This document shows, piece after piece, positions 45,845 to 46,732 of a DNA stretch of 64,000 nucleotides (positions are counted from its first letter, which is position 1; every line of letters begins with the position of its first letter). A program made the position numbers and the translations under genes. This DNA comes from Escherichia coli. Lineage in GTDB: Bacteria; Pseudomonadota; Gammaproteobacteria; Enterobacterales; Enterobacteriaceae. The stretch lies in the NCBI RefSeq assembly GCF_003018255.1, contig NZ_CP027440.1; one strand, given 5' to 3'. The notes beneath the pieces were generated by a model. That model was given only the letters and a program-made list of their open reading frames with translations. It had not been told where the DNA came from and did no database searches.

Positions 45845-46732
45845 GTGGTACGGCGTTTAACTTCTCCGCGGCTCGAATTTGAAGCTGCGGCAATTTATGA
45901 ATATCCCGAACATTTACGTTCATTCCTTAATGACTTACCCACCCGACCAGGGGTGTATCTGTTTCATGGCGAAAGTGACACCATGCCGCTCTATATCGGC
46001 AAAAGCGTTAATATCCGCAGTCGGGTGCTTTCTCATTTACGCACCCCGGATGAAGCCGCCATGCTACGGCAATCCCGGCGAATTAGCTGGATCTGCACCG
46101 CAGGCGAAATCGGCGCTCTGCTCCTTGAAGCGCGATTAATCAAAGAACAACAGCCGCTGTTTAATAAACGGTTGCGCCGCAATCGCCAGCTCTGTGCCCT
46201 GCAATTAAATGAAAAGCGCGTCGATGTGGTGTATGCCAAAGAGGTGGATTTTTCACGAGCCCCCAACTTGTTTGGCCTGTTTGCCAATAGGCGCGCAGCT
46301 TTGCAAGCATTGCAGAGCATCGCTGATGAACAAAAACTTTGTTATGGCCTGCTGGGACTGGAACCGTTAAGCCGCGGGCGTGCTTGTTTTCGTTCTGCAT
46401 TAAAACGTTGCGCTGGGGCGTGTTGCGGTAAAGAGAGCCATGAGGAACATGCGCTACGTTTGCGCCAGTCTCTGGAACGTTTGCGAGTAGTTTGTTGGCC
46501 GTGGAATGGTGCGGTGGCGCTGAAAGAACAGCACCCGGAAATGACTCAATATCATATTATTCAAAACTGGCTGTGGCTGGGGGCGGTTAATTCGCTGGAA
46601 GAAGCGACAACGTTAATTCGGGCACCCGCCGGGTTTGATCACGACGGTTATAAAATTCTTTGTAAGCCGCTGCTTTCCGGTAACTATGAAATTACTGAAC
46701 TTGATCCGGTGAATAACCAGCAAGCCAGTTGA
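45845..46732 (+). CDS. cho: UvrC-homologue excinuclease Cho (GTG start)
   Basis: 295-aa ORF from GTG 45845; GIY-YIG-type N-terminus (GVYLFHGE...[13 protein letters not shown]). Confidence 0.9.

Follow-up and report, generated by a model that had tools for sequence, protein, structure and literature searches.

The convergent cho–ves overlap of Escherichia coli: a probable case of ordinary tail-to-tail overlap through spacer loss and stop-codon shifts

Introduction

The convergent genes cho and ves of Escherichia coli share the last 41 bp of their coding sequences, which raises the question of whether this arrangement is genuine, how it arose and whether it has a function of its own. Convergent overlaps make up about 7% of the overlaps between well-characterised genes and are suspect only when they exceed 60 bp (PMC2478687), and the mutation of a stop codon is their accepted origin (PMC2174442, PMC2478687; Rogozin et al. 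2002 as cited in PMC2478687). The original prediction, made from a 64,000-nucleotide stretch of an E. coli genome (contig NZ_CP027440.1, hereafter the window), held that the overlapping ends constrain both C-termini and imply transcriptional interference or antisense pairing between the two genes. We report here the coordinates and annotation of the overlap, its distribution among clades, the ancestral position of the stop codon and the pattern of selection in the two frames. The overlap is genuine and is probably of an ordinary tail-to-tail kind: a spacer would have been lost and stop codons shifted, and no separate function need be invoked.

The two genes and their shared end

According to both the ORF list and RefSeq, the coding sequence of cho (excinuclease Cho, 295 aa) lies on the plus strand at 45845..46732, from a GTG start to a TGA stop at 46730-46732, and that of ves (a HutD-family protein, 191 aa) lies on the minus strand at 46692..47267, with a TAA stop that reads TTA at 46692-46694 on the plus strand. 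The minus-strand frame is open over 46692..47330, the annotated ves start being the ATG at 47267. The two opposite-strand coding sequences therefore share their 3'-terminal 41 nucleotides, at 46692..46732, as the ORF list of the window and RefSeq agree; the length and position originally predicted were exact to the base, and the names given to the genes were right, as judged from the RefSeq names at matching E. coli loci. The same 41-bp overlap is present in the RefSeq annotation of strain 104 and in that of K-12 MG1655, where cho is b1741 (1823515..1824402, plus strand) and ves is b1742 (1824362..1824937, minus strand). A 1.6-kb query of the locus matched 5,425 of 5,426 complete E. coli genomes, with at least 80% of the query covered in 5,421, and the features annotated beneath the matches were "excinuclease Cho" and "environmental stress-induced protein Ves". 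Because the locus is nearly universal in complete E. coli genomes, a sequencing error in the window, one of the two ways in which the original prediction allowed that the overlap might dissolve, is excluded. The overlap is already known: the reference annotation contains it, and the pair figures in a catalogue of overlapping transcription units.

Both partners are genuine protein-coding genes, as judged from their homologues, their HutD and GIY-YIG matches and the coding-type substitutions in the flanks of the overlap. Cho has 4,423 homologues with E ≤ 1e-20, its main cluster (295 aa) containing 5,277 members, and a PDB sequence search matched its residues 23-111 to the structures 1ycz/1yd0 of the UvrC GIY-YIG domain. 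A Pfam search with Cho gave no match, PF27115 and PF27096 being seen as precomputed labels only. Ves has 251 homologues, with 3,318 members in its main cluster (191 aa); the Pfam HutD domain (PF05962, E = 5.6e-44) spans residues 8-175 only, and the protein matches the HutD structures 5fcc and 1yll. None of the structures matched in the PDB sequence searches reaches the C-terminal tail of Cho or Ves, and AlphaFold2 models had a mean pLDDT of 49 for Cho (20-sequence alignment) and 46 for Ves (26-sequence alignment), too poor to judge the order of the tails.

Within the overlap, first codon positions of cho fall on first positions of ves, second on third and third on second, i.e. phase (123:132). 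Among convergent overlaps of more than 4 bp this phase is the commonest, accounting for 49% of those in prokaryotes and 46% of those in E. coli, and its frequency fits the stop-codon-mutation model (PMC2174442). When the 48 longest ORFs of the window were entered from their 3' ends in the same antisense phase, 58% of them kept the frame open for 41 nt or more (median 42.5 nt), and the length of the overlap is unremarkable.

The junction in other genera

Eighty species loci carrying cho were fetched and both stops were placed in each, revealing junctions that range from a 48-bp gap to a 45-bp overlap. The 41-bp overlap was found in 15 of the fetched loci, all of them Escherichia and Citrobacter records, and the 45-bp overlap in two loci, with a Ves protein of 200 aa. 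Shorter overlaps were of 32 bp (Leclercia, Silvania and one Enterobacter asburiae assembly), 23 bp (11 loci from Enterobacter, Lelliottia and Pseudenterobacter), 15 bp (Kosakonia oryzendophytica and Superficieibacter), 10 bp (Franconibacter helveticus), 7 bp (six loci from Phytobacter and relatives) and 4 bp (the sequence TTAA, in five Kosakonia loci). Gaps of 3 bp (Franconibacter pulveris), 28 bp (Enterobacter sp. ENT03) and 46-48 bp (Pseudescherichia vulneris and relatives) were also found. In Cedecea-type loci ves lies about 1.8 kb from cho, and in Salmonella, Klebsiella, Raoultella, Trabulsiella, Buttiauxella and Winslowiella it was absent within 3 kb of cho. In a neighbour-joining tree of Cho every junction state corresponded to one clade, the 41-bp state marking Escherichia and Citrobacter, with Salmonella nested inside.

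The cho gene faces spy directly in Salmonella, Klebsiella pneumoniae, Raoultella, Pluralibacter gergoviae and Winslowiella; since this arrangement occurs in several genera, gain or loss of ves in the interval between the two genes may have happened on more than one occasion. A clean deletion of ves is seen in Salmonella enterica arizonae and diarizonae (loci L006 and L009, positions ~3850-3990). The Salmonella cho stop abuts the spy terminator region AAAGAAAACCGCCGATCCTGTCCACC, and the Cho tail is different there, reading NTDCRQS (..ELNTDCRQS*) or NTGYRLS.

Two further junction types were observed. In the Cedecea-type loci (L061, L063, L069, L070 and L075, positions ~3865-5650) the 1.8 kb between cho and ves consists of other sequence; these loci have the shortest Ves (181 aa, ..SEITYL*) and a Cho that is mostly of 287 aa. 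The spacers of 28-48 bp (four loci, three of them of the Pseudescherichia type) contain a perfect GC-rich hairpin, e.g. CGCCTGCCGT..ACGGCAGGCG, with no clear U-tracts, which may be the remnant, or the replacement, of a terminator separating cho from ves.

Anatomy of the 41 bp

In 20 Enterobacteriaceae homologues, Cho was conserved through ..YEI(I/T)EL, with I283 and L286 invariant, and beyond L286 it was variable in sequence and from 0 to 9 residues in length. Ves was conserved through ..SEI(N/T)WL, with E178 and I179 invariant and W181 nearly so; it ends in ..WLPGH* (185 aa) in most genera and in ..GH[ST]P[DEH]x[VA]Q* (191 aa) in Escherichia and Citrobacter. The shortest orthologues are the Klebsiella Cho of 286 aa, which ends at L286, and the Cedecea-type Ves of 181 aa, which ends at the equivalent of L182.

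The minimal cores end at 46702 (Cho L286) and 46722 (Ves L182), so that they do not overlap and 19 nt lie between them. The overlap accordingly has three parts. The first 11 nt (46692..46702) hold the Ves stop, V190-Q191 and part of Q189, over the conserved Cho end I283-L286; the next 19 nt (46703..46721) are the former inter-core spacer, now read in both frames as Cho D287-Q293 and Ves A183-Q189; and the last 11 nt (46722..46732) hold Cho A294-S295 and the Cho stop, over the conserved Ves end I179-L182. Each stop is embedded in codons of the partner. The Cho stop TRA (TGA or TAA) reads, on the other strand, as part of Ves ATY-A.. (Ile179, then Asn or Thr) and its position is fixed because Ile179-Asn180 of Ves are conserved, and the Ves stop TAA sits within Cho ATT-AYT (I283, then T or I at position 284).

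Orthologues that do not carry the extensions exist. In other genera Cho has 286-288 aa and Ves 181-185 aa, and the Ves stop lies at the site that encodes Ser186 in the window (codon TCA, 46710..46712, minus strand), this being the case in Enterobacter, Kosakonia, Phytobacter and others. In the junction alignment of 28 loci, the TCA codon differs by one base from the TGA or TAA stop found elsewhere, a 9-nt indel separates Escherichia and Citrobacter from the Enterobacter clade, and the spacer of the other genera carries small indels that change the frame between genera. The direction of the change, from stop to serine, was deduced by parsimony on the single-gene neighbour-joining tree of Cho, which is not a species tree.

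Selection in the two frames

Substitutions were compared among 14 non-redundant 41-bp loci by Fisher tests, each class comprising 5-7 sites from related sequences. The flanks provided the baseline, with 45 of 50 wobble sites variable in the cho-only flank, 43 of 50 in the ves-only flank, and 11 of 50 second positions variable in cho. At 46710-46729, variability at ves wobble sites was normal for ves (6/7), cho wobble sites were variable at only 2/7 (against 45/50 in the flank, p = 0.001) and cho second positions at 6/7 (against 11/50, p = 0.002). These patterns indicate that Cho residues 289-295 are under no apparent purifying selection in the Cho frame, the substitutions being those expected from ves alone; because they fit ves alone, the Cho tail can be regarded as a by-product of changes at ves wobble positions. 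The residues observed in the Cho tail (V/A/E/G, N/S, N/D/G/S/A/V, Q/L/P, and so on) are diverse. Conservation of the Cho tail was considered and rejected, since residues 289-295 follow the ves-frame pattern.

At 46695-46709, cho wobble sites were variable at 1/5 (p = 0.0017) and ves wobble sites at 2/5 (p = 0.037), which indicates constraint in both frames and a putative dual-coding stretch of about 15 nt. The proposed constraint on both C-termini is thus borne out at 46695-46709 and fails at 46710-46729, where the pattern is that of ves only and Cho residues 289-295 appear to be free. Among the 191-aa forms of the Escherichia/Citrobacter type, P187 and Q191 of Ves are invariant and residues 186, 188 and 190 change conservatively. 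The evidence that translation proceeds to the annotated stops is, for Ves, the constraint on its tail and, for Cho, solely the absence of an earlier stop.

Proposed origin of the overlap

We suggest that the Ves stop (TGA or TAA) mutated to TCA, encoding Ser186, and that Ves would then have been extended by six codons (SPDQVQ) to a TAA lying inside Cho I283-T284. The end of Cho would have been altered by a frame or indel change, adding nine codons after L286, up to a TGA antisense to Ves Ile179-Asn180. Each reading frame would in this manner have run on to the next stop, which happened to lie within the conserved end of the partner. Fixation of the 41-bp state probably dates to the common ancestor of Escherichia and Citrobacter, ves being deleted later in Salmonella, and the state would have been inherited unchanged because most changes now harm at least one of the proteins. 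The Cho tail would be a passive by-product, its sequence dictated by ves and drifting with the ves wobble positions. The transcripts would end by Rho-dependent termination within the antisense region or, in the case of cho, at the spy terminator region.

Two observations count against the by-product view. None of the Escherichia and Citrobacter loci sampled departs from the 41-bp state, and in the Ves tail five of the six residues look conserved; for these reasons a function of the Ves tail, or of the arrangement, is possible.

The cho–ves pair resembles the convergent 3'-extension pairs described previously (Lillo & Krakauer 2007, PMC2174442; Palleja et al. 2008, PMC2478687), in which real genes share their 3' ends. 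As in those pairs, other genera lack the extension, the phase is the most frequent, the overlap is shorter than 60 bp and conservation is limited to close relatives. Nothing essential differs, but the history of cho–ves is unusually legible, with its stop-to-Ser change, its 9-nt indel and its mutually anchored stops. The pair is therefore a clean worked example of how a tail-to-tail overlap originates, a tidy illustration rather than a discovery, and of little wider import: each clade appears to have frozen a junction of its own and, in the one studied here, one tail would be riding free while a 15-nt stretch would be dual-coding. In practical terms, engineering a deletion or a tag into the 3' end of either gene alters its partner, and functional conservation should not be read into the last nine residues of Cho.

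Transcription across the junction

Expression of ves at low temperature is said to have been described by Yamada et al. in 2002. A promoter of ves bound by FliA (sigma-28) lies on the minus strand at 47320..47347 and matches exactly a published site (PMC4183435). The cho gene (ydjQ) has a known SOS box and is listed as regulated by LexA (PMC6590174). No site matched the 20-nt LexA consensus at up to 3 mismatches, and the box region of cho (45812..45831, plus strand, with CTG-N10-CAG at 45814-45829) was placed by reading the sequence. SMRT-Cappable-seq located a cho transcription start at K-12 position 1823491, equivalent to 45821 in the window, and detected a nadE-cho read-through transcript, its tables listing cho starts and no cho end (PMC6131387).

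In the nadE-cho intergenic region, an Rfam match to the ES036 (CssrF) sRNA was observed at 45695-45737 on the plus strand (42.9 bits against a gathering threshold of 37.6, E = 9e-7), adjoined by a REP-like element at 45655-45691 (weak naRNA4 match).

A Term-seq study (PMC7815308) reported a Rho-dependent 3' end at 1823539, 24 nt inside cho (within 45845-45870 of the window), a bicyclomycin-sensitive site at 1823784 (about 46114 in the window), some 270 nt into cho, and a minus-strand 3' end of the spy terminator at K-12 position 1825060; none of its lists contains a 3' end at the cho/ves junction. The ends reported within cho suggest that cho transcripts terminate prematurely when the gene is not induced. 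A consensus scan found no promoter-like or terminator-like site at the junction, and the first terminator-like site on the plus strand past cho is that formed by AAGACCGGCGGTCTT and ACGTTTTTTG at 47436..47459, in the ves-spy spacer (the spy terminator region). The downstream antisense RNA has stretches richer in C than in G on both strands, which are compatible with Rho termination and are not evidence for it. As there is neither a spacer nor an intrinsic terminator between the genes, each mRNA must enter the other gene.

The alternative that best survives, although we consider it unlikely, is that the arrangement is a selected excludon-type device, in which selection would have removed spacer and terminator to let SOS-induced cho be transcribed antisense through ves, and sigma-28-driven or low-temperature ves into cho, exclusive expression being achieved by polymerase collision or by RNase III cutting the duplex. 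The pair does appear in a 2025 survey (ExcludonFinder) as one of the 165 convergent excludons detected in no fewer than half of the 58 MG1655 transcriptomes (PMC12288877), and it is like these in being formed by convergent neighbours with necessarily overlapping transcripts. However, the listing is automatic, because RNA-seq coverage overlaps wherever coding sequences overlap, and classical excludons have long overlapping UTRs and demonstrated reciprocal expression, whereas in cho–ves it is the coding ends that overlap. The genes have unrelated regulators, LexA for cho and FliA for ves, no intrinsic terminator separates them, the first plus-strand site lying beyond ves, and the stops overlap or nearly touch in many genera; against this, the geometry of the junction is labile, from a 48-bp gap with a hairpin to a 45-bp overlap, and Salmonella and Klebsiella have no ves beside cho. 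Full-length transcripts containing cho exist (PMC6131387), but the Rho-dependent end 24 nt into cho implies that few polymerases would reach the junction in the absence of SOS induction, and Term-seq gave no 3' ends there. Moreover, there is no report of anticorrelated expression of cho and ves, and no conserved RNA structure past what coding accounts for. The interference or antisense pairing originally proposed holds only in a trivial sense, as mRNAs covering both stops are complementary over at least 41 nt.

It seems less probable still that cho mRNA induced in the SOS response runs about 0.7 kb antisense through ves to the spy terminator region, thereby silencing the sigma-28-dependent, low-temperature ves gene during DNA damage, and that the loss of the spacer was selected for this reason.

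RNA structure at and near the junction

An imperfect inverted repeat, TGAAATTACTG ... CAGTTGATTTCA, spans the overlap at 46687..46737 and can fold as a hairpin on either strand. We regard as very improbable the explanation that this repeat is a functional bidirectional terminator or an RNA-stabilising hairpin for which the overlap has been kept. The 51 nt do fold on both strands, the outer arms are kept in 14 of 14 loci and some genera with a gap carry a GC-rich hairpin between the genes, but the stem is rich in A and U, neither strand carries a U-tract and the repeat was not flagged by the terminator scan. The minus-strand fold was also no better than that of shuffled sequences (z = -1.25). 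The arms encode Cho Y-E-I-T and Ves S-E-I-N, nearly all pairs involve invariant coding positions, and double changes were found in one pair only. Since nearly every paired column is invariant and the consensus structure has an energy of only -2.5 kcal/mol (RNAalifold, 14 loci), the repeat is explained by coding, and this analysis found no conserved RNA structure beyond it. A functional terminator hairpin in the overlap was therefore rejected.

Bidirectional intrinsic terminators are the corresponding known systems, which cho–ves resembles in its closely spaced convergent stops and in the GC-rich spacer hairpin carried by related genera, and the spy terminator region past ves looks bidirectional in the same way. 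By contrast, the cho/ves junction of E. coli has no GC-rich hairpin flanked by U/A tracts.

A separate, strong 12-bp hairpin lies within the ves coding sequence at 46751..46779 (plus strand), 19-47 nt past the cho stop; it has no U-tract, and the 151-nt fold that contains it has z = -3.1. All four distinct Escherichia sequences compared retain it, one variant having a C-to-U change that preserves a G-U pair on the plus strand only, and Citrobacter lacks it.

Annotated ends and variants in databases

The least credible explanation is an artefact of annotation or sequencing, with one of the proteins truly ending at an earlier stop: many long convergent overlaps in databases are indeed 3'-extension misannotations (PMC2478687), the Cho tail is without selection in the Cho frame and rare variant ends, such as Ves of 180 aa or a frameshifted 217 aa, do occur, but neither gene has an earlier in-frame stop, whether in the window, K-12 or any of the 14 further 41-bp loci, stops need no prediction, the ves-frame substitution pattern reaches the end of ves with the Ves tail constrained, and the main clusters of 295-aa Cho and 191-aa Ves have thousands of members. 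The earlier stop that the original prediction named as its other possible undoing is excluded in this manner. The artefact is refuted at the level of the sequence, and shortening of either protein would need programmed frameshifting or protein processing.

Several variant forms were noted in the databases. Ves proteins of 215-217 aa (P0126, P0129, P0167, P0195 and others) result from frameshifts, at several positions, into an open minus-strand frame; as an open minus-strand ORF extends over 46613-46789, a frameshifted Ves entering there would lengthen the overlap with cho to 120 bp. Most of these variants derive from automated assemblies, and they probably represent errors or sporadic pseudogenes. 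A single read-through variant of Cho, of 436 aa, was also found. A Ves of 180 aa ending in ..LLFSEIN represents a cluster of 116 member sequences with E. coli names, and its length implies a premature stop at, or just past, codon 181; if the stop is in the W181 codon (46725-46727), the overlap would shrink to 8 bp in those strains.
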